Part shown: positions 39,601-64,000 of the stretch, in pieces
How the letters are laid out: the number at the start of each line of letters is the position of its first letter
Position numbering within the stretch: the stretch's first letter is position 1
From: Octopus vulgaris
Lineage: Eukaryota
Assembly (NCBI GenBank): GCA_951406725.2
Contig: OX597834.1
Span: 35,092,001 to 35,156,000, forward strand
Length of the DNA: 64,000 nucleotides
Direction: 5' to 3'
Made by a program: the position numbers and the translations under genes
Notes under the pieces: generated by a model
What the model saw: only the letters and a program-made list of their open reading frames with translations
What the model was told of the DNA's origin: nothing
Databases searched by the model: none

Positions 39601-40379
39601 GTGAAGGCATACGCGTGTTTCTCATCATATATATATATACACACACAAACACATATATACACACACACACACACGTGAAATCTACAGAATATTTTATTCC
39701 TACCCAACACAGTCACGTCAAACGAAAACCGTGTCTTTGGATTTTTCCATACACTGCAATGACAAAGCCGAAATTATTCAGTTAATTGCCGTCACGCAAA
39801 CACTGAACTTACAGTTTGACCTCCCACAATATATATAAATAAACAAAACTAAATAATAACGAAACTTCGCCCCCCCCCTCCTCTTTTGTGACAGTTATAC
39901 GAAGATAGATGTCAAATACGTCAAAGAGAAACTGAACGTGGGTGACAATAACGAAGATTGAAATATGGTAATTCTGATCTCTAACGGTTAAAGACGATGG
40001 GTCGGAGGCGGAGAGGGAGAGACAGAATCTAGCAAAACACATAAATATAAGCATAACTATTTATACATACACATGCATATATAGATCGCATATGCACACA
40101 TATATATACATATTAACACATGTACACACATTTATGTATAAATTTTGTTGTTTTGGGTTTTTTTTTTCTTTCAGTAGTTTCAGCTCCAGAGCTGAGGCCA
40201 TGCTGGAGCGCCGTCATTAGCTTTACCTTTCATCCTTTCGGGGTCGATAAATAAAGTACCAGATTCGCACTGGGATCGATGTAATCGACTTAATCCCTTT
40301 GTCTGTCCTTGTTTGTCCCCTCTATGTTTAGCCCCTTGTGGGTAGTAAAGAAATATATACTTTCTTTCACTATTTGAAA

Positions 40380-40625
40380 CTTCCTCTAAAATACGGCATT
40401 TTGGTGAATGAGGGAGTTTGATGTTGCTGCTCTCATCTGTGTTTCTTTGACAGGAGGAAATCCAGTTCTGTTCTGAAGACACCTTATATCCAACCCATGT
40501 AGCTGTCCAGGCTTTTGGGGGAAGATACTGAAGAGCTGTGGGCCCTTGAAACCCAAGCTGTTGCAGTATCTGGTTCTCTATCCTGATGGCAATGTTGGGA
40601 TCTTTGACAATATACAGTGGCACCC
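40380..40625 (-). mobile_element. CR1/L2-like LINE 3' fragment
   Basis: LGFQGP..LF-like and NWISS..DE segments resemble the post-RT terminus of CR1-group LINEs; frameshifted. Confidence 0.45.
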
Positions 40626-43253
40626 CGTTCAGCAGTTTGTGTAACTTTCAATGCCAAACTTTGACTCAAACCCTTCCAGGATTTCCCAAATGTATATCAC
40701 TACATATCTTTCCCGCTTTCGTTCTAGGGAGTAGAATATGAACTTTTTCCGTCTCTCCCAGTAGCTAATGTGTCGCACTGAGACGATCTTCCTTGTGAAG
40801 TTTCGCCGGATTACTTCGAATTCCCCCTTTAATTTTATAGTGGTGACCATCGTCGGGAACAGTAGTCTAAATGGCTGAGGACATGTATGCGTGCGCACAC
40901 ACACTAATTAACCATACCTTACTCGGAGTTTTTTGCAGTTTTTTTTTTTTTTGTGTGTGTGGGGAAAAGGGCAGAGACAAATTCGAACTTTGATAAACAC
41001 AGAATGTTAGCCTAAATTTTCAAATAAGGTACGTCTTAACATTAGAAATTATCCAAAACCCCTAGAGAGTGCATAATTATTTAATTAACCACGTAAACAG
41101 TGCACACAATGTAAGCTGTACCAGAAAAGTTTGTTTATAAAGAAGAAAGTAATAGGTTGTTCTTTCTCTGATGAATGTCTAAGAAGATTAGAAACTAGTC
41201 GAATCAATTCCAGTTTTTCTAACACACACAAGAGCCTACATTCCTGCAATCCTCTTAAAAATAAGAATACAATTCCGCGCATACCTCAGGGATACGGAGG
41301 TGTATTAGCTGCTGCAACAGCAACTAGCATAAAAGTACCGAAGAAAAACTTTTCGTAATAATAATTCTTTCTAGTAAAGGCACAAGGGCTGAAATTTTGA
41401 TAAGAGGCGGCCAGTAGATTACGTCGATAATAATAACCCATTCTATTATAGGCACTAGTCCTGAAATTTAGTTGGAGGGGACGAGTCGATTACATCGACC
41501 CCAGTGCTCGGCAGGTACATATTCTATCGACCCCGATATAATGAAAGGTAAAGTCGACCTCGGGAGAATTTGAACTCAGAACGTAAAGACGGGCGAAATA
41601 CCTATTTCTTTACCACCCACAAGGGGCTAAACATGGAGTGGACAAACAAAGACAGACAAAGGGATTAAGTCGATTACATCGACCCCAGTGGGAAACTGGT
41701 ACTTTATTTATCGACCCCGAAAGGATGAAAGGCAAAGTCGACCTCGGCGGAATTTGAACTCAGAACGTAGCGGCAGACGAAATACCGCTAAGTACTTCGC
41801 CCGGCGTGCTAACGTTTCTGCCAGCTCACCGCCTAATAATAATAATGATGATGGTGGTGGTGGTCCCAAATTTTAGTATAAAGCCAACAATTTCGGGGAG
41901 GGGTTAAGTTATCACATCGACCCCAGTGTTCAACTTTAAAAGGATGAAAGGCAAAGTCGACCCCGGCGGAATTTGAAGATAGAACGTGAAGACGGACGAA
42001 ATGCCGCTAAACTATTTGCACGGCAATAACGAGCTAGACCCCTATAGCCCAAAATTTTAGGCCTTATGTCTGTAGTAGAAAGGATTATTTTGATTATTGC
42101 CAAGTGACAATAATAATAATAATAGACACAGGATGGGCTTCCGCAAAGTTTCCCCTGGCATTTGACCGGTCCGATCCTACAGTTGAAGACATCTATGCCA
42201 AAGTGCCGCGCAGTGGGACTGAATCCGAAACCACGTAGTTGCGAAGCGAACTTTTTAACCACAAAGCCATGTCAGCTATAATTTTTGCACAAAAAAATAA
42301 CAATATTTTTGCCTTATATTCCAATTGGGTCTGTTAAGGCTCGGGCTAGCAGAATCTAAAGCATGCCGGGCTTAGTGGTATTTCGACCGTCTTTACTTTC
42401 TGAGTTCAAATTCCGCCGTGGTCGACTTTGCCTTTCAGGATCGATAAAATAAATATCAGTTGAGCGTTGGGGCTAATGTAATCGACTTACCCCTTACCAC
42501 GAACTTGCTGGCCTTGTGCCAAAATTTTCAACCAATATCAATGGGTCCCAGTCAAAATGTTCAACCATGTGTTTTCAGTTATGCGATCAATTGAACAATT
42601 GGGCTAATTGAATTGATGTTTAAAGTGGCAGACTATTCTGCAGATACGGGTACCTTGAACGTAATTCTCAAGCAGAAATCAGTGTGACAAGGCTAAGGCT
42701 TTTGATTACAGATACGATCCTTCCAATTGTTTCCAAACAGATGCCGTCTGCCCAGTTTCACTGACAAGGTTGAACCGAGGCTGCATAAAACGATAATGAC
42801 CTAAGAAATCATGCTGAGTCACCGTGGTGTATACATACATACAGCGCTGGACTAACCATTAAACAAAATAAGTATGTTCTTAGGACATCAAAGGGAAGGG
42901 AGGCACCATAGAAATGGTAAATGGTTGACGGCACAAAAGAATTCACTTTAAACTTGCTAAAATAATATTCGGGATTCCTTTTCTCTCCTAAGTATAGAAG
43001 CAGATGTGTTACATAAGATTAATTTTGAAGGTCTGATCAAAGACAAAGTAGGAGAAAACTTTTCAAATATAAAGTGAAAGTATAAAAAAAATACAAATAT
43101 TTTCTTACTGTTAGTTTTGTTTTATTTTAAAAAGTATAAATTTATTTTATGGTTTATTATTGTTTATATTTTGAATTGTGAGTGCACCAAACATTTCTAA
43201 GTGGATAGAGTCTGCATGGGTCTTAATCCAGCTCTATCTATCTACCTGCCCAC

Positions 43254-43288
<35 letters not shown>

Positions 43289-43338
43289 CTTGCCCACCTA
43301 TCTACATATCTATCTATCTATCTATCTATCTATCTACA

Positions 43339-43373
<35 letters not shown>

Positions 43374-44424
43374 ACACACACATTGGCATAGCTACACAAG
43401 TGTGATACGAGGTACGACGACTTTATTTCTTCATAACTTTCAGAAAGATGGACATTTTTTTGTTTGTTTTTTTAATGATATTTTCTACAAATACCTTTCA
43501 GACAGTGTAGGTTCCGACTGCATTCTAACTTTTGCTGTATTAGCTTTAATCGGTAGAATGTGCCGTACACGAAATTTTCTTCCCCGAGTCAATTTTGTAA
43601 CTTACAATCAATTAAAAATAGTAAAACAAAATACACACACATACATTCAGTTTATTTCTCCTGTTCTAACACAACACACACACACGTGTATGTATGTATG
43701 TACTGAGTGTGTTCGCATTTAAACTTACAGATTATTCTTTTTGATAATCATACAATTTAATTATAGGCGCGAGCACATACGTAATATAGACATTCAGATA
43801 CTTACACATGTCTACGCATTGTTATGTGCATGTATATAGTTAACTACAATTTATATAGTCAGATTGTGTAATATCTATACATATAACCATTACACAATCT
43901 CAGAAAATAACAGTATTCTTAAAGAAGATTAAATAAGAAAAATACCAACATCATACTGAACATTTTCAAAATCTTTTTAGTAAATATTACTGAGAGATGA
44001 ATTAATTATTTTACAAACGACGTTAGGTGCAGTTTTTCAATGAATAAAATCTCAAACAGCACTGCACTAGAGGTCCTTATTGCAAACTTGTGATATCAGA
44101 TTTCCAATTATGTATGAAGATATATATAAATAAATAAAACATTGCCATTTATTTACACTATAGAAACACACGTTGTTATTTTATTTCTGTTTCGTTTTTG
44201 TTTGGCTCCCCGCACCCAAGGATATAAATCCGGGTGGTTCGTAATAACCTGTCGGGTAAGTCGGAGATTTTGGATTGATGGATACAAAGTGTGATATTCC
44301 GTTATGTGGTGGGATGAACACTATAACAAAAATAAGTACTCTATCCAGCGAGAGGTAAATATTGAATATACACAGGGTTTATAGTGACTTATAGTAGATC
44401 AATCTTAAATCCTATGTATATTAA

Positions 44425-44504
44425 ATGATATATATATATATGTATGTATGTGTATGTATATATATACTTACATACATAAATATATACATATATACATATG
44501 TATG

Positions 44505-44551
<47 letters not shown>

Positions 44552-44727
44552 TGTTGCTCGGGTTTGTAGAAATAACTATAAAGCATTTTAGTTATAGCCA
44601 AAAATGAAAAAATTATGGTCAATTTTCTTTAGTTAAAAGGTCGATAGACAGTCTGTGGTTTGTATGATTCTCGACCCCATGTCGAATTTATCGATTTTAT
44701 ACATATGTATGTATGTGTGTGTGTTTC

Positions 44728-44761
<34 letters not shown>

Positions 44762-44944
44762 ATATATGTGTGTGTGTGTATGTATATATATATACTTACA
44801 TACATAAATACATATGTATGTGTGTATGTGCATATATGTATGTATATATATACTTACATACATACATAAATACATATGTATGTATGTGTTTATATATATA
44901 TATATATACTTACATAAATACATATGTACGTGTATGTATGTATG

Positions 44945-44987
<43 letters not shown>

Positions 44988-45042
44988 TTACATAAATACA
45001 TATATACATATGTACGTGTATGTATGTATATATATATATATA
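44425..45042. repeat. Compound (TA)n/(TATG)n microsatellite with repeated TACTTACATACATAAATA unit
   Basis: Direct reading. Confidence 0.88.
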
Positions 45043-46857
45043 ATTGGCCACGTCTTTCGTGCTATTGTTTAACGCTCGGTTAGCCCTGATAGAGTAGAGC
45101 TATAATTAAGGGTATCCCACCACATTTTAGTGCGTCCACCCATTGACTTTTCTCTTTCTTTTTCAAGACAGTAAAATATTCTAGATTCAGATGCCTTGGG
45201 GGTTTTTCTCTTTCTTTTTAGCCGGTCGAACGACCACGACAGGCTCCTATCATCATTAGCTAGATAGACATCAAGCTAATAACTCATGCAACTGAGTCAT
45301 TATAAACTAAACACGACATTGGACCTATACTTTGCAGTAATTTTCCACATAATAAGCCCTAAACAATTATGTTTCGATACGAGGCTTCGTTGACTCATCG
45401 ATACTGAAATAATCTTAACTTTCCACTAAAAAAAGTAGTGTTGTCCTCTCATAGAATGAAAATGAAGGCATTTGCGAAGAGGGATAAATTAATAAGGCAG
45501 CGGAAATTTCCCAAGTGTATATTTGAAGATATCAGGAACTGAGCCAAACATCCTGAACATCAAAAAGCATGTATAATGAGGAGGTTTCCGTAAAATGTAG
45601 TTAATATATATGTTGAAATAAAAATGAATAAAATTATAACAGGCCTATACATATATTGGAATGAAAAACGAGGGGCGGGGGAACTTTCACAAACAACTAT
45701 ATAACAATTATTACAAGACAGTCCCAGCTTTATATATGTATAAATTTCACAATTAAAAAATATTAACAATAGTACTGAATATGATAGTTATCCTGGTTCT
45801 TTTAAACAGTAAATGGTATTCTCTCAGAAACCATCTACAAGTGGATATACAGGGAACTTTACAGAAAACCTATTTTAATTTTATTCCAAGGCAGGTTGAC
45901 CGAGGTTATTATTCAACTGAGCACATTGAAATTTAGATCAGGACGTAAACATTGAAGTAAAAACAACGGATTACTAATGTATACCCTTTCCAAAAGCACA
46001 ATATGTAGTTTGTATTTAGAACTCGTCATTTTTAGACTTTATAACTTATAGAAAGTGTTTATCTAAAATGATACAAAAAAATTATAAACAAATGCACCAG
46101 GAGTGGGTGTCGAAATTTATGTTAATAGAATGTTACAGTAAACTTTAAACAACGTTCTCGACCAACACACACACACGTAATTCTTTGGTTTTACATTTAC
46201 TCTTGGTAATTGAGAAATACATATTGATTTTCTATTAATGAATAAAGTTGGTGTTGATGCCTGGCCATCAAAGTATAAAAATATTCTAGTTAAAATGAAA
46301 GTAAAAGAGATAATTTTAAAACATCTTACAATGAAAGAAAGCACTTCGTTCTTCGGACGTTGAAAACCATTTGCCGTTTTGGGTTTAGGGTACGATTTTT
46401 AATGACCTGGGATTATCAAAGATGTATTAATTAGGCGAGGACACGAATGACATTGCAGTTAAGTCTGATATATTTATACATATATTGTAATGTATATTTC
46501 AGTGTAGGTGTGAGAATAATTGCCTATTTCTGGAGTTTAACAGAGGGAATAGGCACTCACATGCATTGTATATCATCAGGTTGTGTCGTAATTTCTCGAA
46601 TAATAAATAGTTAGATGTGACGGTCAAGGAGGACATGAATGACAATGGAAAATAAAAGTGTTCAGGTGAGACTGTTGACTGAGACAAGTTGGTACGATTA
46701 GGAAAAATCACACATTTACGGGCTTTTCCCCACTACACACGTAACAATAAAACAGAAAGGCCAGGATGACAGCATTGGTTTCCAAATATGAGGCACGGAT
46801 AAGGAGAACCAGATATTGACAAAAATTAATATGGTTATTGGACCTGACTGATGTAGG

Positions 46858-48136
46858 GGTAGCTAGCACTAATTTATCAGTTGTGATACAATAATTGGAG
46901 ATTGAAAGAAGAAAACAAGAGACATGTGAATGACATTGAGAAGTAAGAAAACAACAAAGTGACGCCAAAGAAAGTCTATACACAACAGATGATAAATATA
47001 TTGATTTATAAGTGAGATGGTTAATAATGCCTGCCGGACTTCACTGTATTGTAAATAGATATAGGTTTTAAGAGGGTTTACATATTAACAAAGACAACAC
47101 ATTGATGAGACTTATTGGTTGTTACACACTATTTTAAAATGATAAATTTCGTTTATCTTTGTGGAAACAAAACAAATCTTTGAGTTGGAAAAGTCGCTCG
47201 TAAATAATAAAGAGACAGAGAGAAAGAGAAAGGAAGAATAAACCGTGTGTCTGTCTGTGTGTGTGAATGTGTGTGCGTCAGAGAGAAAGAAAGAGAGAAA
47301 CATAGAAATAGTGTCTGTGTGTGCGTCGAACACGAGATGAGAAGCTGGGATGAACATCTCAATCCCTTTTTTTCATACGAAACAAGTCGATAAAATAGGT
47401 AAATGAATAGAAAGGTTGTCTGCTCAACAATCTTACCTACGGCTGACCGCTGTTATTTCCTCTTCTATTCGTAAAATCCCATCCTATGGGGTAATAACAT
47501 ATCCATAGTGAGTAGAACCCAGCAGTATATCTACTCATGCTACGCTTCGTTTAATTGTAAACTCGCTGCCTTGACAGGTGCTCATACAAAACCCGAAATG
47601 GTTGCTAAAAGATCGATAATTCATCATCACATCACACTTCTGCTAAATACTTGTTGCATGAGCTTTATTTGTTTATTTCTTGGTCTTTGTTGTTGGGTTT
47701 TTTTTTGTCTCTTGTTCAAGTGTTACCGATTACGAGCGAAATAGAAATCTTGTCAACTCATCAGATATATAATTGTGTTTTAAATATATAATCTTAATAA
47801 TAGACTTGCTTTGTTTTCACATGCGAAGAATAACTTTTAAAAGTTTATAAATCAAGTATTGTTTACATGTATATAAATAAACAATATTTCTTGCAACTTT
47901 TTTTTTTTCCTTCCGATAGTTATTAGTGTGACGGGAAGGGAGACGGACTGGTTTCGTTCCGTCTTTATCAAAGTTTTTATATAGTCTAATGTTGCAATTA
48001 TATAAACCGGATGTATATCCCGAGTATATAAAGCGTGTGAGTACGTGTTTCGGTCATTTTTTGCGGAGCAGTTTGTTGGCTGTTGCTGAGGTATGTGCTT
48101 TATAAGTCAATCAGCAAGACCGGGGGTAATCGTAGC
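46858..48136 (+). repeat. ~1.25-kb near-identical segmental duplicate, copy 1 (upstream region, promoter, exon 1)
   Basis: Reads almost base-for-base with 60612-61841, apart from scattered substitutions and small indels. Confidence 0.95.
48006..48059 (+). promoter_or_regulatory. Pol II core promoter of paralog 1: ETS-like site, TATA box, Inr
   Basis: ACCGGATGT 48006-14, TATATAAA 48025-32, TCATTT (TCAKTY Inr) 48054-59 with the A exactly 31 nt after the TATA start. Confidence 0.7.
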
Positions 48137-48435
48137 GTATATTAAGATATATACAGCTTAAGCATGTTGAGGACAATCCGTAGTTTAAGACTTAGCCATT
48201 TTAGTAATCGAACTATTTTTTTTCATAATGTATTAACGTTAATCCCCTTTCTTCATAGATTAGTATGTATTTTATGACTAGAATTAATATATACTTATTT
48301 TTTTTCGCTTTTCCGGTGAAGCTAAATTTTTTTTTTTTTATCTTTTATCTCTTGAAAAAAGACATGGCTTTAATGTAATATATAGTATTTTGTGTATAGA
48401 TTTACGGTGATATAACTAACGGTTCTGCCGTGAGT

Positions 48436-48507
48436 GGAAACTGGCGGTAACCTGCAGCCACGTGGCTTCATCTGTTGCTCACCGTTCTCACACTTTACTC
48501 CACGTGG
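48436..48507. promoter_or_regulatory. Paired CACGTG E-boxes plus GGAAA.TGGCGG motif in intron 1 of paralog 1
   Basis: CACGTG at 48459-64 and 48501-06, both followed by G; conserved in paralog 2 amid diverged sequence. Confidence 0.6.
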
Positions 48508-48541
48508 TCTCTTGCTGTTTATTCTGCTACTGATTTTTTCT

Positions 48542-48663
48542 ATTTCGGTGATGACATTCGCGATTCTGAAGATCAGTTGTTCTCTTCGTGGTGCAGTTTT
48601 TGTGCTTCCGAAGTTCTGACAACTTTTTTACATTGCTGTCTTAGAGGCATTTGTCTGAGAAAT
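48542..48663 (+). ncRNA. SNORD15: Box C/D snoRNA, U15/SNORD15 homolog, copy 1 (D' guide altered)
   Basis: Box C GTGATGA 48548-54, D' CTGA 48566-69, D CTGA 48655-58, terminal stem ATTTC/GAAAT. The 3' end TTAGAGGCATTTGTCTGAGAA matches my recollection of vertebrate U15. Guide GAGGCATTTG is complementary to conserved LSU rRNA CAAAUGCCUC; the D+5 rule gives the A equivalent to human Am3785/yeast Am2281. Confidence 0.88.
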
Positions 48664-48834
48664 TTACATTCAGTACAGTCCTAATTGGGTTTTTTTTTTT
48701 AATCCTACCCTGCTGTCCATACCACTGCTAGAATCTGCTTTTGTACAGGGTTTTTTTTTCCTTTTAGTTCTATATTTTATATAGTTTCGAATATATGTGT
48801 TGCGGTTAATTTTGGATTTCGTTAAAGTGAGAAA

Positions 48835-48880
48835 TGTTGCTTGATGGATTCGTACATTTTTTTGTACCCAAGCTGTCCGC
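48835..48880 (+). pseudogene. Decayed SNORD52 remnant in host paralog 1
   Basis: TGTTGCTTGATGGATTC...AAGCTGTCCGC aligns to TGTTTGCCCTGATGAATTC...AAACTGTCCAC of the 62980 snoRNA. The downstream flank TGTCGATCA.GCCATA...TAGTGTAT.AATTAG is shared. Box C is mutated and the guide and D boxes are lost. Confidence 0.6.
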
Positions 48881-49177
48881 GTGTGTCGATCAGGCCATAA
48901 TTTACTAGTGTATTAATTAGTAGCCATTTAGTGTATGCTCGTTTTTAATGGTAGCTCTTTCATTTGTCTCCAGTTAAATTAAGGGATGTTTTGCTACTTA
49001 GTTTTAATTTTTACAGAAGTCATATTAGTCCGGTATGAGGATATTAAATTTCGTCGTTCCTCCTGGGTGGGTGATCTGTGTAACTGCCGTCTGCTAAGTT
49101 TGACCTCAACCCTACTGTGACGGTCAACATGTTACCCTTGCTAAATACTATATCGCTGTACAGTTGTAGTTCTATAG

Positions 49178-49259
49178 AAATGTCCTGAGAGTGATGACCT
49201 TGTGGATCGACTGATTATCTTGACGATTTCCCTTCGCCCCTATCTGACTCGGGACATTT
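49178..49259 (+). ncRNA. Box C/D snoRNA family A copy 1 (SNORD80/snR60-type D guide)
   Basis: 12-bp terminal stem AAATGTCCTGAG/CTCGGGACATTT, C GTGATGA 49191-97, D' CTGA 49211-14, C' TTGACGA 49220-26, guide TTCGCCCCTAT 49233-43, D CTGA 49244-47. The guide pairs with LSU AUAGGGGCGAA (human Gm1625/yeast Gm908 equivalent). Confidence 0.92.
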
Positions 49260-49983
49260 TAGTAAATGTTTTTTTTGTCTTCTGTGACTGGTGGTAGCGG
49301 TACAACTGAAATACCAGAAGATGGTGTTTTAGTAGATTAAATACGTTGTCTGATTGCTTTCTTTTCGCTCCTGTATATTTGATGTGTCACTTGTTTTATT
49401 TTTCACGCTAGCATAAACATGTAATTTGCTGTGATTGATATAGATTTGAGTGCCATCGTGGCGTGGAAAAAAAATTACGGTTAATATCTAGATCCGCACC
49501 CGGTGGGAAAATTGGAAACGAAAATGTGTAACAGTTGTAAGGCATCGTATATTGACGGGAAAAAAGCGCGCTGACAAACGGGGGGTGGGGGGCTCGGGAA
49601 ATTCCCAGGATCAACCGTAGAGGATCCACGCCCAGGTGGCAAAAATGGAAAAAAATATGTGTAACAGGTGTAAGGCATCGTATATTACTGTATGTTATAT
49701 ATCAGCTTTGCATGTTATTTAGATCACTTTCGTTTGTCTCAAAAGATTTTTATCCCTGACTTTTAATGAGAATAACCCAACAGGGGGAAAGCACAATGTG
49801 TGCCTTTGTTCATAGACCAACTCGGGTCCAGGGGACTTACTGTATAACGTATGGAAAGTGTCGTATGGGGCTGGGGTGACTGATAATTGTGGAGGGCGTT
49901 GATCCATTTATACTGCTAATAGACGGTCAACAATTGTAAAGGTGTTTTATGGACATACTGTTATAGTGTCAGCATTACGAATT

Positions 49984-50081
49984 AGCTTCTGATATCATGA
50001 TGAACACTAGGTCGGAGTACTGTGCTATTTTCAGCAGTGATGACAGCCCTACTCGTTCACTTCTTCTGAATATCAGAAACT
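49984..50081 (+). ncRNA. Box C/D snoRNA family B copy 1 (target unassigned)
   Basis: Stem TTCTGATAT/ATATCAGAA, C ATGATGA 49997-50003, degenerate D' (CTGT), short internal hairpin TGCT/AGCA, C' GTGATGA 50037-43, D CTGA 50066-69; paralog at 53030. Confidence 0.82.
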
Positions 50082-50777
50082 AATTCTGTGAGCTCCATAA
50101 CCCTTCAGTATTCGGTCAAATGTAATATTTATAAGCATTGTTTTGAGTCACGTTTTATCCCGTAGCTTTGGGATTTATTTTTAGAATGATATTGTTGGAT
50201 AGGTGCGAGAAACCAAAGATGATCGGTTTGAATGTTAGTGTTACTCTTAGGTTCCTTTTGCGAATTGGTTTTTTAAACCTGCCTTGTATAAAGTTTAATA
50301 AAATATGTTTATAAAAGATAAATATTTCCATGTCCCCCTTCTCCTGTTCTAAAATATCTGACTGGTGTGACCCAAAAATTTGTTTATAGCTTCTGTTGGA
50401 TTTCGTGTTGCTCTTCTAAGGGCGTATAGAATAGGTATGTATTGTTTCGTTTGTGTGCATCATGTACTAAAAGTTCTGGCTGCTGTTCTCCAGTGTTTTG
50501 CAAAATCAGGCTCATACTACGAATAAAATTTCTGCAACTTTTGTAGTAGGGTGTGGTGGGGGGCAAAGAATAGGCAGCCATTTAAAAGAACTTCATTTTT
50601 AATTACTATGGTTTGGTTTTGAGATAGAGGGGTATCAAAGCGTTTAATTGAATATACTTGTTGGACGGCTCAATATTTTACACTTGCAGGTAGAAGCATG
50701 ACTCTAGGTTGCTTCAGCCTTATTCAACCATGGTAAAGTAGAAAAGATTTCTCATTGAATGAGATGAGATTTGGCAA

Positions 50778-50860
50778 AAACTGTCCTGAGGATGATGATC
50801 TTGTGGATCGACTGATACCTTGACGATTTCCCTTCGCCCCTATCTGACTCGGGACAGTTT
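50778..50860 (+). ncRNA. Box C/D snoRNA family A copy 2
   Basis: 13-bp stem AAACTGTCCTGAG/CTCGGGACAGTTT, C ATGATGA 50792-98, D' 50812-15, guide TTCGCCCCTAT 50833-43, D 50844-47. Confidence 0.92.
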
Positions 50861-51196
50861 ATGATTGCTGCAATGAGTGAGATAAGAATAATGCCATGTA
50901 TTTGGAGTGATATCTGCTGCTGGTGTTGCGAAACTATCACGGTAAAGAGCACCTTTCGAGCACTGGGCCTCACAGAAGCAGTCAGGAAGGGCACCTAACT
51001 GTAGAATTAGGCTGGAGTCTGGCACTGCCCCTCAGCTTGCCAGCATGGACGTTAAATGATGATAGATAATGTGGTAATTTTGAAATATGCAGAGGTTGTT
51101 TCAATGGATTGAAGAATTTCCCTGGTGAAATTCTTTTTGCCCTTGTCTCACTTAAGACATTTCGTTGATGTTTTCACTTACATATACTGTTTGGGG

Positions 51197-51401
51197 AGAG
51201 TGCCTTATAGTTAACACGCTCACTGGTAAAATTTCCACTTATTTCGTTTCTTTTTCTGAAAATTTTTGTTGCGTCTTGCAACCTTTTCAATAGTTTTGAC
51301 AGTCAAAACTATTGAAAAGGTTGCAAGAAGCAACGAAAGTTTTAGAATGATAAAGGAAATAGGGGGAAATTTTACTGGTGTGTGTTAAATTATAAAGCAC
51401 T
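51197..51401. repeat. Long palindrome centred on 51301
   Basis: Perfect 27-bp arms TCTTGCAACCTTTTCAATAGTTTTGAC / GTCAAAACTATTGAAAAGGTTGCAAGA with a 1-nt spacer, extending imperfectly to about 100 bp per arm. Confidence 0.88.
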
Positions 51402-51564
51402 AAAATAGAATGACTCTCCCCAGACACAACAGAATGTACTTCAACACACAAACTCACATAAAGAATCTTGCTAACCAAATCCAAAAGCAAAATTCACTTA
51501 CATAGTTTTCCTTTTAGTATTCACAATCTGGTTGTTGCAATAAACCTCTCTCTCTCTTGTTTTT

Positions 51565-51637
51565 GTCCTGAGAATGATGATCTTGTGGATCGACTGATGT
51601 CTTGACGAATTCCCTTCGCCCCTATCTGACTCAGGAC
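51565..51637 (+). ncRNA. Box C/D snoRNA family A copy 3
   Basis: Stem GTCCTGAG/CTCAGGAC, C ATGATGA 51574-80, D' 51594-97, guide 51615-25, D 51626-29. Confidence 0.9.
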
Positions 51638-51856
51638 TGTTTATGAATATTATAAGTGGGATAAGATAATTTAAATTTTGATACAAGGTTCCTTCCACCC
51701 CAATAATGTGAAAGATTCTAAGGCTGGTTGTCATGTGGATTGACTTGTTTTGCATATTCTTCTTTACCTCTGTCTAGCTTAGAACATTTATATTGTAGGT
51801 TCAAAGGTGGTTGGGAAATGGTTTCATTTTTTCACAGTGGACAATGTGTGAAAATA

Positions 51857-53009
51857 TAGAAAGGTGATGTTGAAAAGATCTTGGCTTTAAGGGTAAAGCT
51901 GGGAGGTAGGTCAGAAGATATACAGAATATGATGTGGTATACAATATATCTTTCTCTTTTTTGCAGATTTAATGCATGATGGCAGCTCCTAGTGTATTTT
52001 GGGAGAATTGAAGTACAAGTAGTAATGAAATTACTCTTTCTGCAAGGCAAACAACCAGCAGAAATCCATGGCCATATGAAGAACGTCTTGAAATATGGCT
52101 GTCCATCTTACTCCACAATAAAAATCAGGCTAACTGATGATCATTTTGGCAGGACAGCCAACTTCTGCAACTACAGAGGACTCTGTGCATGTCATGATTC
52201 TCGAGGACTACAGGGTTTCAGCTGAGACTCCGAGGATTTCCCGCGAAAGAGTTAATCACTTCATCCACAACATTCTGGGCATAGGAAAGCTTTCTGCAAG
52301 GTGGGTGCCTGAATGCAGATCTCAAGTACATCAGGATGACAGCATCAGAGGTGATTTTGGACCAGTCTGCAGCAGGAGAGGTTGATTTTATGGCTTGTTT
52401 AGTCACCTTGGATGAAACTAGGCTTCATCCCCGGACCAAGCAGCAATCAATGGAGTGGAGTCACGGTTGTTCACCACATCCCAAGAAGTTTTGAACCTGG
52501 AAAATGACTAGAAAGGTTCTGGCTTCAGTGTTCTGGGAGTACCCCTTTTATAATACCTGCCAAAGGGTGCACCATCAATGCAGAATACTACATGTCTCTG
52601 TTGGATGAAGCTTTGATGCCATGGAAAGCTGACCCATAATGCCCTGCTTTTGTAGGGTAGTTGTATCAACACATGAAACCCTACAGAAACTACACAGCGG
52701 CTTTGAATTGGTAGACCTCCGACCGTACTCTTCTGATTATCACCTCTTTTCACAACTGAAGAAACGCCTCCACAATGAAATTTCACTCTGAGGGGTGATT
52801 GTTGCTACAACCTCCCAAGTTCTTTTTTCAGGGTTTAGAAAAGCTGAGGGACTGCTGTGATAGGTGTGTGAATCTGAGAGATGAATACGTTGAATAAAAT
52901 CACTAGCAGCTAAGCCTGGTCTGTTTGGATGATGTGGCTATGATAGATTAACTAATTCTCCTGTATTTTCTTTTATCTAGAGCCAGGGAATTTTAAGTAT
53001 CCCTTTGTA
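51857..53009 (+). mobile_element. Decayed Tc1/mariner (mariner-type) transposon with frameshifted transposase
   Basis: ORF fragments VMKLLFLQGKQPAEIH..PSYSTIK (HTH), KLSARWVP (WVPHEL motif), LVTLDET (first catalytic D) and SDYHLFSQLKK (YSPDLAP region). Degenerate TIRs end in TA. Confidence 0.88.
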
Positions 53010-53029
53010 TATAATGTTACCATTACCAA

Positions 53030-53125
53030 TAGTTTCTGATATCATGATGAACACAGGTCGGAACACTGTGCTATTTTCAGCAGTGATGACAGCTCTATTC
53101 ATTCACTTCTGAATATCAGAAACTA
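53030..53125 (+). ncRNA. Box C/D snoRNA family B copy 2 (target unassigned)
   Basis: Perfect 13-bp stem TAGTTTCTGATAT/ATATCAGAAACTA, C ATGATGA 53044-50, C' GTGATGA 53083-89, D CTGA 53109-12. Similarity to copy 1 stops near the stem ends. Confidence 0.85.
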
Positions 53126-53861
53126 ATTGTGTGATGTCTTGTTCTTTGATTCCCCTTCACTTATTCATTTCTTAAATCAATGCTTTGTAATCATGAATTT
53201 CAATAAAATGCTTTTATTAAAAAAGAAATAACTTGTCTGTGCTTTTCCTATTCTGTTTTTAGCCCAGTTGGATTTCATCTCACTTTTTCAAGGACATGTA
53301 CTGAATTGAAGTTTGGGCCACTGACCTATATTTTTAATACTTCACAGCCAGAATTAATCCTTTAGCATTCAGATTAATTTATCTAGTGTAATACTTATTC
53401 ATCACATTTTTTTAAAAAGTCATTTAGTGTTTTGAAGATGTGATTGTTTATTTTTAGAATGACATTGTAGGGTGGGTGTGAGAGGCTGAGGCTGGTCAGT
53501 TTCAACATAAAGCAATATTTGAGCCAGATATGGCCATTTAAGGGGTTATTGAACATTTAGCTCCTGCAGGAGAGGGTTCTTGCATTTTGGGTTTCTCATT
53601 TTTCTGGATTTCTAACCCTGCAAAGGAACTTCTTTTAAGAATACATTTGAAGAGGATTACTAGGAATCTAATTGAATCTTGTAGTATTTTGAGGAAAGTC
53701 AGCCCAATTATATTTTACACTGGCAGATAGAGGGATGCAACTCGGGTCGTTTCAGTCTTATTAGACTTTGGTTGAGTGGAAGGTTAACGTTGGTGGCCAC
53801 AAAGACATTGATGGTATTGATTTAGAATTTTAATCCTACAAGTATGGAGTGATTTGGCTGC

Positions 53862-63056: not shown

Positions 63057-63673
63057 ATACCTTTCGTTATCTGTCGATCATGCCATATTTGTTCACATAG
63101 TGTATAAATTAGTGGTAGGCTTCGTGAGTCATACCGTAATTCGGTCTGTAATCGCAGCTTAGATTTTTTTTCGGCCAGTTTAATTTATAAGTTAGTCATT
63201 TTGATCGATTATCACGGGTTTTTTTCTATACGACCATTATTTTTTAACAGTAGGTTGTGATTTTTAGCAGAAGTGGGTTTCCGTTTTTTTTTTTTTTTTC
63301 CTCTGAAAATTTCCATGGACTGGGTTTTGGTTTCAACGGATTCACTTTTATTATAGTGTAGGATCGTTTTATTATGGCGCTGATTTTTTTTTTTTTTTTG
63401 TATTTGGTTATATGCAGAAATAGTTTACGACGAATACCTTTTCGTTCATGACTAGGGTCAGGTACTTCGTCTTTATGCCGGCATTTAGTTTTGTAGAAAT
63501 AGCAGCCAGCTCCTTAGGGGTAAGGAACTCTTAATGCAGTTTTATGATAGTAAGATAGCCGTATTGCTTCGTATTTAAGATTATTTAGATAAGACTTTGA
63601 CTTGGTATAGATTTCGTTTTAGTCATTTTTTTTGTATTTAACTATGGTGATACGTTATCTAGTCACAGTGTTT

Positions 63674-63757
63674 GAGATGTCCCAAAAGTGATGATTTCGT
63701 GGATCGACTGATTTCTGACGATTAATCCTTTTGCCCCTATCTGATTTGGGACATTTC
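63674..63757 (+). ncRNA. Box C/D snoRNA family A copy 4 (second host paralog)
   Basis: Stem GAGATGTCCCAAA/TTTGGGACATTTC with compensatory changes relative to copies 1-3, C GTGATGA 63688-94, GTGGATCGA plus D' CTGA 63708-11, guide TTTTGCCCCTAT (C>T gives G:U), D 63741-44. Confidence 0.92.
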
Positions 63758-64000
63758 ATTAGCCGCTATTTAACATCCGTTTTTCGTCCTAGCATGGGTT
63801 GGGTAGTTTGACCAGACCTAGTAGGGGACTGGTCGCATCAGGCTCCAACGTGGTGGCCGCAGCAGTATATGTGCACATGCCAGGGTGAATCGAGGAGGCG
63901 CATTTTTCAATGAAATTCGGACTTTGGTACAGATGTAAGTAAAATGTATTAATTCTCGTATTAATAAATTGTATCATTGGATTGATACCTCAAAAAGTAG

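Follow-up and report, generated by a model that had tools for sequence, protein, structure and literature searches.

RESULTS

A cluster of box C/D units in the octopus genome

The sequence analyzed here is a 64,000-nucleotide window of the Octopus vulgaris genome (assembly GCA_951406725.2, contig OX597834.1, positions 35,092,001 to 35,156,000). Its plus strand carries a cluster in which the units of one family, denoted B, are accompanied by four units of a second family, denoted A, and by two other C/D-like units (Table 1). The D guide of family A forms 11 to 13 bp with the octopus's own LSU rRNA at G1337, a predicted target that is not known to match a yeast site. Family B, with units of ~95 nt (B1 and B2), had been described as a two-copy family, but a third copy was found just outside the window. 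The three copies (B1, B2, and B3) are all the DNA matches found in the 2.8-Gb genome, 3/3 in this one cluster, and a search of 94 kb with model R1 returned only the same three. The guide-plus-box motif matched the genome 14 times versus 10 times for a control motif; a box C lies upstream of it in B1 and B3 only (0 of the 12 remaining matches).

Table 1 Features of the family B cluster (window positions unless stated otherwise)
Feature	Position	Strand	Remark
C/D-like unit, 5' end of cluster	48542-48663	+	10 Watson-Crick bp on own LSU A3377
Family A copy 1	49177-49260	+	cluster mate
B1, whole unit with outer stem	49979-50091	+	model R1, 143 bits
B1 terminal helix, 5' arm	49980-49995	+	pairs with 50070-50085; outer AATTAG, one C/A mismatch, inner TTCTGATAT
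B1 terminal helix, 3' arm	50070-50085	+	pairs with 49980-49995; inner stem 49987-49995 / 50070-50078, outer stem 49980-49985 / 50080-50085
B1 box C (ATGATGA)	49997-50003	+
B1 D' guide, 16 nt	50004-50019	+	positions 2-12 complementary to own SSU 1895-1905
B1 box D' (CTGT), noncanonical	50020-50023	+	followed by a 4-bp hairpin up to C'
B1 box C' (GTGATGA)	50037-50043	+
B1 putative extra base-pairing element (CTCGTTC), C'-D spacer	50052-50058	+	complementary to own SSU 1888-1894
B1 box D (CTGA)	50066-50069	+
Possible short host-gene exon, 3' of B1	50390-50434	+	AG before, GTATGT after
Family A, further copies	50778-50860, 51565-51637, 63673-63758	+
B2, whole unit	53021-53137	+	model R1, 136 bits
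B2 stem	53030-53042 / 53113-53125	+	13 bp, uninterrupted
B2 boxes	C 53044-53050, CTGT 53066-53069, C' 53083-53089, D 53109-53112	+
B2 D' guide	53051-53065	+	differs at positions 2-3, one T fewer
C/D-like unit, start (63994-64000) in window	63994-64065	+	53 nt upstream of B3
B3	genomic 35156119-35156218 (~ window-equivalent 64118-64212)	+	DNA match, 118 nt past window end

B1 and B2 are covered by contigs of 4 runs from 4 studies, presumed to be RNA, although such contigs cannot show ends, strand, or level. The contigs of 3/4 runs (X1, X2, and X12) break at position 47437, exactly at a GTAAGA donor on the minus strand, and these three runs are therefore RNA. No splice joints were present inside the cluster in the contigs of the runs. 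The contig joints at 48346 sit in T-runs and were taken as artifacts. The core of the putative host-gene exon located 3' of B1 is repeated at 71% in positions 53267 to 53300, downstream of B2; no spliced contig was seen for this exon, and no convincing ORF was found in positions 40000 to 49000.

Structure and conservation of family B

B2 shares the layout of B1, and most of what the preliminary description had reported on the anatomy of the family was borne out. Canonical C, C' (GTGATGA), and D boxes are present in the family B copies; the terminal stems are long, with inner and outer stems in B1 and an uninterrupted 13-bp stem in B2; AGGTCGGA, located upstream of the noncanonical D' box (CTGT in 3/3 copies), is unchanged between the copies; and the D-adjacent spacer varies in both length and sequence. 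A hairpin of 4 to 5 bp separates D' from C'. Box C and box D are joined by a terminal stem in 3/3 copies, consisting of 9 to 13 bp plus outer extensions, such that the complete helices extend over 16 to ~25 bp. Pairing in these helices is kept despite changes on both sides: the outer stem AATTAG/CTAATT of B1 and B2 becomes AATAAG/CTTATT in B3 (T-A to A-T), and the pair next to it is T-A in B2, C-G in B3, and C/A in B1. The fold z-scores of the family B copies are -2.7, -4.6, and -2.5. The bodies of the copies are ~90% identical, and the flanks outside the stems do not align among B1, B2, and B3; this contrast and the fold z-scores indicate a resemblance beyond chance. B1 and B2 are also covered in organisms B to E, with few differences among the rows listed, these species being too close for a test of constraint.

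Dispersed genomic copies had been named in the preliminary description as the sign of a miniature inverted-repeat transposable element (MITE). Such an element, or any other dispersed repeat, was ruled out by the presence of only three genome matches, all in a single cluster. It is likewise very improbable that family B is nonfunctional, that is, that it consists of decayed snoRNA copies or a MITE-like inverted repeat riding in a transcribed intron. The long terminal inverted repeats are indeed MITE-like, B2 looks partly degenerate, and the mature RNA of ~90 nt is a predicted product, but three copies in 2.8 Gb, confined to a single cluster and a single strand, argue against this reading, as do the covarying stems and the conservation of the boxes and the guide but not of the flanks. 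Furthermore, in DNA-sized runs from related species, the sequencing depth over B1 and B2 is approximately that of a single-copy locus, whereas adjoining true repeats reach depths in the thousands.

The preliminary description had not recognized the family, and no Rfam family matches it: there were 0 matches at the gathering score in the whole window. The best Rfam match to B1 at E ≤ 10 is snoZ118/Z121/Z120 (RF00142), a plant family, at 19.3 bits versus a gathering cutoff of 48 (E of 0.22 on 121 nt). The generic C-hairpin-C'-D architecture and the terminal stem are common to both, but the guide region is unaligned, and family B is not a member of RF00142. The SNORD28 model (RF00085) gave no match at either the gathering score or E ≤ 10. 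The matches to miRNA families at positions 51198 to 51400 belong to an unrelated inverted-repeat element.

Taken as a whole, family B is very probably a genuine lineage-specific box C/D snoRNA family, which is to say, a new family within an ordinary kind of gene.

Predicted target of the D' guide

Targets were assigned as the nucleotide opposite the 5th guide position, with the D' box taken as CTGT. Under this rule, the top rRNA match for B1 and B3 is C1898 of the own SSU rRNA, with 11 bp (9 Watson-Crick and 2 G:U); the B2 guide forms 9 bp at the same site. This predicted target is the equivalent of human 18S-C1391, the SNORD28 site. SNORD28 (U28; RF00085) is the human guide for 18S-Cm1391 and is hosted by SNHG1. 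It is listed for 18S-1391, and when its D guide (PMC4914119) is aligned by hand on own SSU positions 1894 to 1908, the 5th nucleotide again lies opposite C1898, with two mismatches, at own 1899 and 1903. In a six-species table of 2'-O-methylated nucleotides (Nm), the position equivalent to C1898 is filled for human, mouse, and Xenopus only, with no entry for fly, yeast, Arabidopsis, or Dictyostelium.

Complementarity by itself is not significant: 53/400 shuffled guides score equally well somewhere in the rRNAs, and thus the match to C1898 alone is weak. It is supported by its coincidence with a known methylation site and by extra pairing that adjoins the guide duplex in B1 and B3. In these two copies, seven conserved nucleotides of the C'-D spacer, identical in B1 and B3 and lost in B2, are complementary to SSU 1888 to 1894, which directly abuts the guide duplex. 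Shuffled sequences contained 7 nt complementary to either flank in 300/20,000 (B1) and 237/20,000 (B3) cases and an abutting 7-mer in 122/20,000 (B1) and 131/20,000 (B3), about 1%, in a test that was post hoc, with the target chosen first.

These observations bear on the designation of family B as an orphan box C/D snoRNA in the preliminary description. The box C/D type stands; the orphan status is doubtful given that the best rRNA match of the guide is the SNORD28 site, and family B is probably not an orphan. A true orphan with respect to rRNA methylation would act on another RNA or serve as a 5' external transcribed spacer (ETS) pre-rRNA chaperone, with the C1898 match a coincidence. We consider this unlikely. 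In the 5' ETS, the guide of B1 and B3 can indeed form 10 bp, all of them Watson-Crick, and this match ties with C1898 in score, but it begins only at guide position 5 and requires the T that is missing from B2. The result of the shuffled guides, the noncanonical D' box, and the lack of methylation at the C1898 equivalent in 4/6 of the model organisms tabulated are likewise compatible with an orphan. They are countered by a top match that, by the 5th-nucleotide rule, coincides exactly with an established Nm site and by an abutting extra pairing rarely reproduced by shuffling. Nor did the own U6 and U2, the two snRNAs searched, show any complementarity above 6.5.

Two other candidate targets had been tentatively proposed in the preliminary description. 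The string given for the LSU does not exist there: of the octopus's SSU, LSU, and 5.8S sequences, only the first contains TCCGACC, at a single place, and the nearest LSU match of the guide, at 1199 to 1207, has 9 bp including 2 G:U. The SSU proposal was sound as far as pairing is concerned, for both GGAGT (B1) and GGAAC (B2) pair with own SSU GTTCCGACC (1579 to 1587), with two G:U pairs in the former versus none in the latter. The guide would in this case address own C1582 in GTTC*CGACC, and G:U pairing would accommodate the GT/AC variation among the copies. Both variable nucleotides stay paired in 3/3 copies, and B2 forms 9 Watson-Crick bp there with guide positions 2 to 10. As the best target, C1582 nevertheless gave way to C1898, which matches B1 and B3 better, and we regard it as improbable. 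The duplex reaches only 9 bp, with two terminal G:U pairs in B1 and B3, for which the energy is -14.0 kcal/mol at C1582 versus -19.5 kcal/mol at C1898; B2 pairs about equally with both sites (-17.9 and -17.1 kcal/mol, respectively). The spacer contributes just 5 nt of complementarity flanking C1582. Furthermore, C1582 is not a known methylation site: its human equivalent is 18S-1074 (by our own count from the SNORD59A D' guide, assuming no indel), for which there is neither a human guide nor a row in the six-species Nm table.

The D-box guide of family B was considered as a methylation guide and dropped: no rRNA match is common to the three copies, among which the register is shifted by indels. 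A nonexhaustive search of the genome with one motif found no second, canonical guide for C1898. Our favored interpretation, held with moderate confidence, is that the three copies of family B form a gene family with the complete box C/D layout, whose predicted role is to direct 2'-O-methylation of 18S rRNA at C1898.

DISCUSSION

The predicted target nucleotide of family B is the same as that of SNORD28 (own SSU C1898 opposite the 5th nucleotide), and both reside in multi-snoRNA host transcripts, yet the two resemble each other neither in sequence nor by covariance model. In family B the guide precedes D', in SNORD28 it precedes D, and family B differs further in its terminal stems of 16 to 25 bp. 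The annotated conservation of SNORD28 is limited to mammals (PMC4914119), and that of the site to human and Xenopus. A parallel to the mode of pairing is provided by the "extra base-pairing" C/D snoRNAs of yeast and human. As described by van Nues et al. 2011 (PMC3116282), these likewise combine a short guide duplex with a second conserved element, located elsewhere in the snoRNA, whose rRNA complement adjoins the methylation duplex, and divergent C'/D' motifs can be active. For family B, the extra pairing is a prediction, drawn post hoc from 2/3 paralogues.

A mechanism consistent with these features can be proposed. A long host transcript would release the family B units, whose long external stems would aid snoRNP assembly at a distance from splice sites. 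Pairing between SSU 1895 to 1905 and the 16-nt element that precedes CTGT would bring C1898 across from the 5th nucleotide, as the substrate of fibrillarin, and in B1 and B3, the 7-nt stretch of the otherwise free spacer may pair with SSU 1888 to 1894 as a stabilizing extra contact beside the guide duplex. B2, in which both contacts are weakened, may be decaying or drifting towards C1582.

We tentatively suggest, as a possibility short of an even chance, that the "vertebrate-only" SNORD28 site of 18S rRNA is methylated in cephalopods as well, by means of an unrelated snoRNA with a D' guide and an abutting second contact. In that case, the site would either date back to the bilaterian ancestor, its guide having been fully replaced, or have arisen twice, and the covarying external stems of 16 to 25 bp would represent this lineage's means of splicing-independent release of many snoRNAs from long introns. 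If true, family B would extend to a protostome an rRNA methylation tabulated so far in vertebrates only, illustrate clearly the turnover or convergence of guides, and supply an example of bipartite guide-plus-extra pairing beyond yeast and human; otherwise, it is an ordinary housekeeping RNA gene. No catalogue of snoRNAs in cephalopods came up, and, judged by title, none of the papers listed in a full-text literature search deals with them. The long covarying external stems, which families A and B have in common, fit a lineage with several snoRNAs per long intron.

Family B has three members

Family B consists of three box C/D-type units, B1 and B2 in the window and B3 beyond its end. The two units of the preliminary description are real, and their boxes and stems were located in both. 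The family is not two-copy as had been stated there, however: searching all 2.8 Gb of the assembly at the DNA level gave exactly three matches, and the family is therefore assigned three members, the third of which (G000:C21:35156119-35156218, on the contig carrying the window) lies 118 nt past the window end and was thus invisible to the first reading. A scan for a C box, a D box, and a terminal stem over the window and its 30-kb flanks likewise found B1, B2, and a third copy. Each unit folds more stably than its own shuffles (z-scores of −2.7, −4.6, and −2.5). The outer helix is AATTAG/CTAATT in B1 and B2 versus AATAAG/CTTATT in B3, a T-A to A-T change, and at the neighboring position B2 has T-A, B3 has C-G, and B1 is mismatched (C/A); this covariation was read off the sequences and folds, the B3 arm being left unaligned by MAFFT owing to a 5-nt insertion. 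At 49979, in the outermost B1 stem arm, the assembly has G, but C is present at full depth in all four RNA runs and is also the base of B2 at the equivalent place; the discrepancy is a strain or assembly difference, not editing.

Features of the snoRNA-like cluster (window positions)
Feature	Position	Strand	Remark
C/D-like unit	48542-48663	+	
Family A copies	49177-49260, 50778-50860, 51565-51637, 63673-63758	+	
Family B starts	49987, 53030, 64118	+	
C/D-like unit	63994-64065	+	53 nt upstream of B3; runs past window end
B1 whole unit	49979-50091	+	
B1 outer stem arm	49980-49985	+	AATTAG
B1 inner stem arm	49987-49995	+	TTCTGATAT
B1 box C	49997-50003	+	ATGATGA
B1 D' guide element	50004-50019	+	16 nt
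B1 box D'	50020-50023	+	CTGT
B1 hairpin	D'-C' interval	+	4 bp
B1 box C'	50037-50043	+	GTGATGA
B1 C'-D spacer	50044-50065	+	22 nt
B1 box D	50066-50069	+	CTGA
B1 3' stem arms	50070-50085	+	complementary
B2	53021-53137	+	layout as B1; 13-bp stem without interruption

Many dispersed copies, which would make the family a MITE, had been named as one outcome that would count against the first reading, and the genome search gave only the three matches. The "guide core plus box" motif occurs 14 times in the genome versus 10 times for a reversed control, and a C box lies upstream of it only in B1 and B3 (0 of the 12 remaining matches). A covariance model built on the three copies scores 135 to 143 bits for B1 to B3 and found no other members in the 94 kb searched, where the next, unrelated matches reach 15 bits. 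The unit bodies are 88 to 90% identical, with no alignment of the flanks past the stems. In DNA-sized runs of related species, the depth over B1 and B2 is near that of single-copy neighbors, whereas nearby true repeats reach thousands. Together, the copy number, motif, model, fold, covariation, and depth results exclude a MITE.

Rfam yielded no match at the gathering score anywhere in the window, in agreement with the earlier statement that the family was not recognized. At E ≤ 10, no family matched inside the units other than a miRNA family (B2) and, on the wrong strand, an archaeal sRNA (B1). The best match to B1 alone, plant snoZ118, was rejected: its 19.3 bits fall below the cut-off of 48, and only the boxes and stem align. 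Family B is a previously undescribed family within a known gene kind, and we consider it very probable that the three units are genuine box C/D snoRNA genes.

Cluster, transcription, and possible host

The other cluster members also carry predicted rRNA guides. The D-box guide of the unit upstream of the family A copies forms 10 Watson-Crick pairs on the LSU of this genome at A3377, and that of the unit next to B3 forms 10 Watson-Crick pairs and 1 G:U pair at LSU A4469, which we take to lie within the sarcin-ricin loop region. Family A, with terminal stems of 13 to 14 bp and a canonical CTGA D' box, matches LSU G1337 through its D guide over 11 to 13 bp; A4 is its weakest copy in stem sequence yet has the longest guide match. 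By our yeast numbering, G1337 is presumably not a known 2'-O-methylation (Nm) site in yeast. The table of PMC11014333 has no row near yeast 805 to 817 for this G.

The segment 48073-53219, including B1 and B2, is covered nearly without gaps by contigs of four runs from four studies of the same organism, presumed by guess to be RNA. Three of them (X1, X2, and X12) are taken to be RNA, and a gene transcribed divergently from the minus strand is taken to adjoin the cluster, because their contigs diverge from the genome exactly at 47437, a minus-strand GTAAGA donor, and have zero depth in bins 46000-47201. The first exon of that gene is at 47437-47900 on the minus strand. A possible start of the snoRNA host on the plus strand is suggested by a TATA-like sequence around 48026 together with the donor GAG|GTATGT at 48092. 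No splice joints within the cluster were seen in the contigs, and no convincing coding frame was found in 40000-49000. A short exon-like block 3' of B1 (50390-50434), preceded by AG and followed by GTATGT, has its core repeated downstream of B2 at 71% identity, which suggests duplication of units made up of a snoRNA plus an exon.

Two differences were noted near A1. At 49217, within A1, A reads G in part of X2 (depth 10.2 of 23.7), which may reflect either a second allele or A-to-I editing in an RNA rich in stems. Between A1 and B1, the intronic segment 49474-49683 is missing from contigs of two related organisms, in which 49473 is joined to 49684; because it contains a 133-nt tandem duplication, it is called a lineage-specific insertion.

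Predicted rRNA target

Targets were predicted on the rRNAs of this genome (SSU, 2643 nt; 5.8S, 159 nt; LSU, 4890 nt), taking CTGT as D' and the target nucleotide as that opposite the 5th guide nucleotide. The top rRNA match of the B1/B3 guide is SSU C1898, with guide positions 2 to 12 pairing to SSU 1895-1905 (11 bp, of which 9 are Watson-Crick and 2 are G:U; −19.5 kcal/mol). The match is not significant by itself, as 53 of 400 shuffled guides score as well at some place in the rRNAs, and a stretch of 10 Watson-Crick pairs in the 5' ETS reaches an equal score. The LSU string proposed in the preliminary description is absent from this LSU. The proposed SSU string does occur, once, at 1576-1587, but it offers the B1/B3 guide only 9 bp at C1582, 2 of them terminal G:U (−14.0 kcal/mol). 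The B2 guide, mismatched to the C1898 target at positions 2 and 3, forms 9 bp there (−17.1 kcal/mol) versus 9 Watson-Crick pairs at C1582 (−17.9 kcal/mol). C1582 lies 43 nt downstream of the equivalent of human A1031, as marked by the SNORD59A D' guide, and would, provided no indel intervenes, correspond to human 18S 1074; positions 1072-1076 have no entry in the human guide table or in the six-species Nm table. The D-box side guide has no rRNA match common to the three copies, and nothing in the U6 and U2 of this genome scores above 6.5.

Two arguments support C1898. First, the human SNORD28 D guide (PMC4914119 supplement), hand-aligned to SSU 1894-1908 with mismatches at 1899 and 1903 only, places its 5th nucleotide on C1898, and SNORD28 is listed as the guide for 18S-1391; C1898 is therefore assigned as the SNORD28 site. 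This site carries Nm in human, mouse, and Xenopus and is blank for fly, yeast, Arabidopsis, and Dictyostelium (PMC11014333 Table S4); since 18S accounts for 72 rows of this table, a position picked at random would seldom be a known Nm site. Family B resembles SNORD28 in its target, being predicted to act on the same 18S nucleotide, but it does not belong to the SNORD28 family, as it matches neither the covariance model nor the guide position.

Second, the otherwise variable C'-D spacer of B1 and B3 contains CTCGTTC, complementary to SSU 1888-1894, which directly abuts the guide duplex, so that 18 consecutive rRNA nucleotides would be paired. Among 20,000 shuffles of each spacer, complementarity to either 15-nt flank extended to 7 nt in 300 (B1) and 237 (B3), and a 7-mer abutting the duplex arose in 122 and 131; this test is post hoc, the element having been noticed only once the target was chosen. 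In B2 the element is lost, with 3 nt left. Such "extra base-pairing" was described by van Nues et al. (PMC3116282) for yeast and human snoRNAs, chiefly those with short guides, and was shown there to boost methylation up to five-fold; the family B contact, predicted from complementarity, would be the same arrangement. That family B is both a genuine snoRNA family and directed at C1898 is a joint claim we hold with moderate confidence.

Anatomy, copy number, stem covariation, and RNA-contig cover form the observed base of a possible mechanism. Family B units would be processed out of a long host transcript. External stems in mammals aid snoRNP assembly independently of splice-site distance, and the long stems of family B may support it in the same way. 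Docking on SSU 1888-1905 would involve both the D' guide and the element in the spacer, and fibrillarin would methylate C1898; B2 may be a weakened copy or one drifting toward a new site. The family is of modest note in that its predicted Nm site is otherwise vertebrate-only, its rRNA contact would be bipartite, and its covarying external stems are of unusual length.

Neighboring repeats and rDNA

A near-perfect inverted repeat at 51198-51400 is very high-copy in all runs compared. Several miRNA families match it below cut-off (MIR6288, 47.5 bits versus 74); a MITE-type repeat is the most likely identity, rather than a miRNA gene. The wider spacing between A3 and B2 is attributed to a moderately repeated element at 51950-52900, which has long open stretches and is transposase-like by eye. 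The 18S contains large GC-rich expansion segments within its 2643 nt. On contig 20 (G000:C20) the rDNA units recur at intervals of ~18.3 kb; contigs 1, 5, and 28 carry additional copies.
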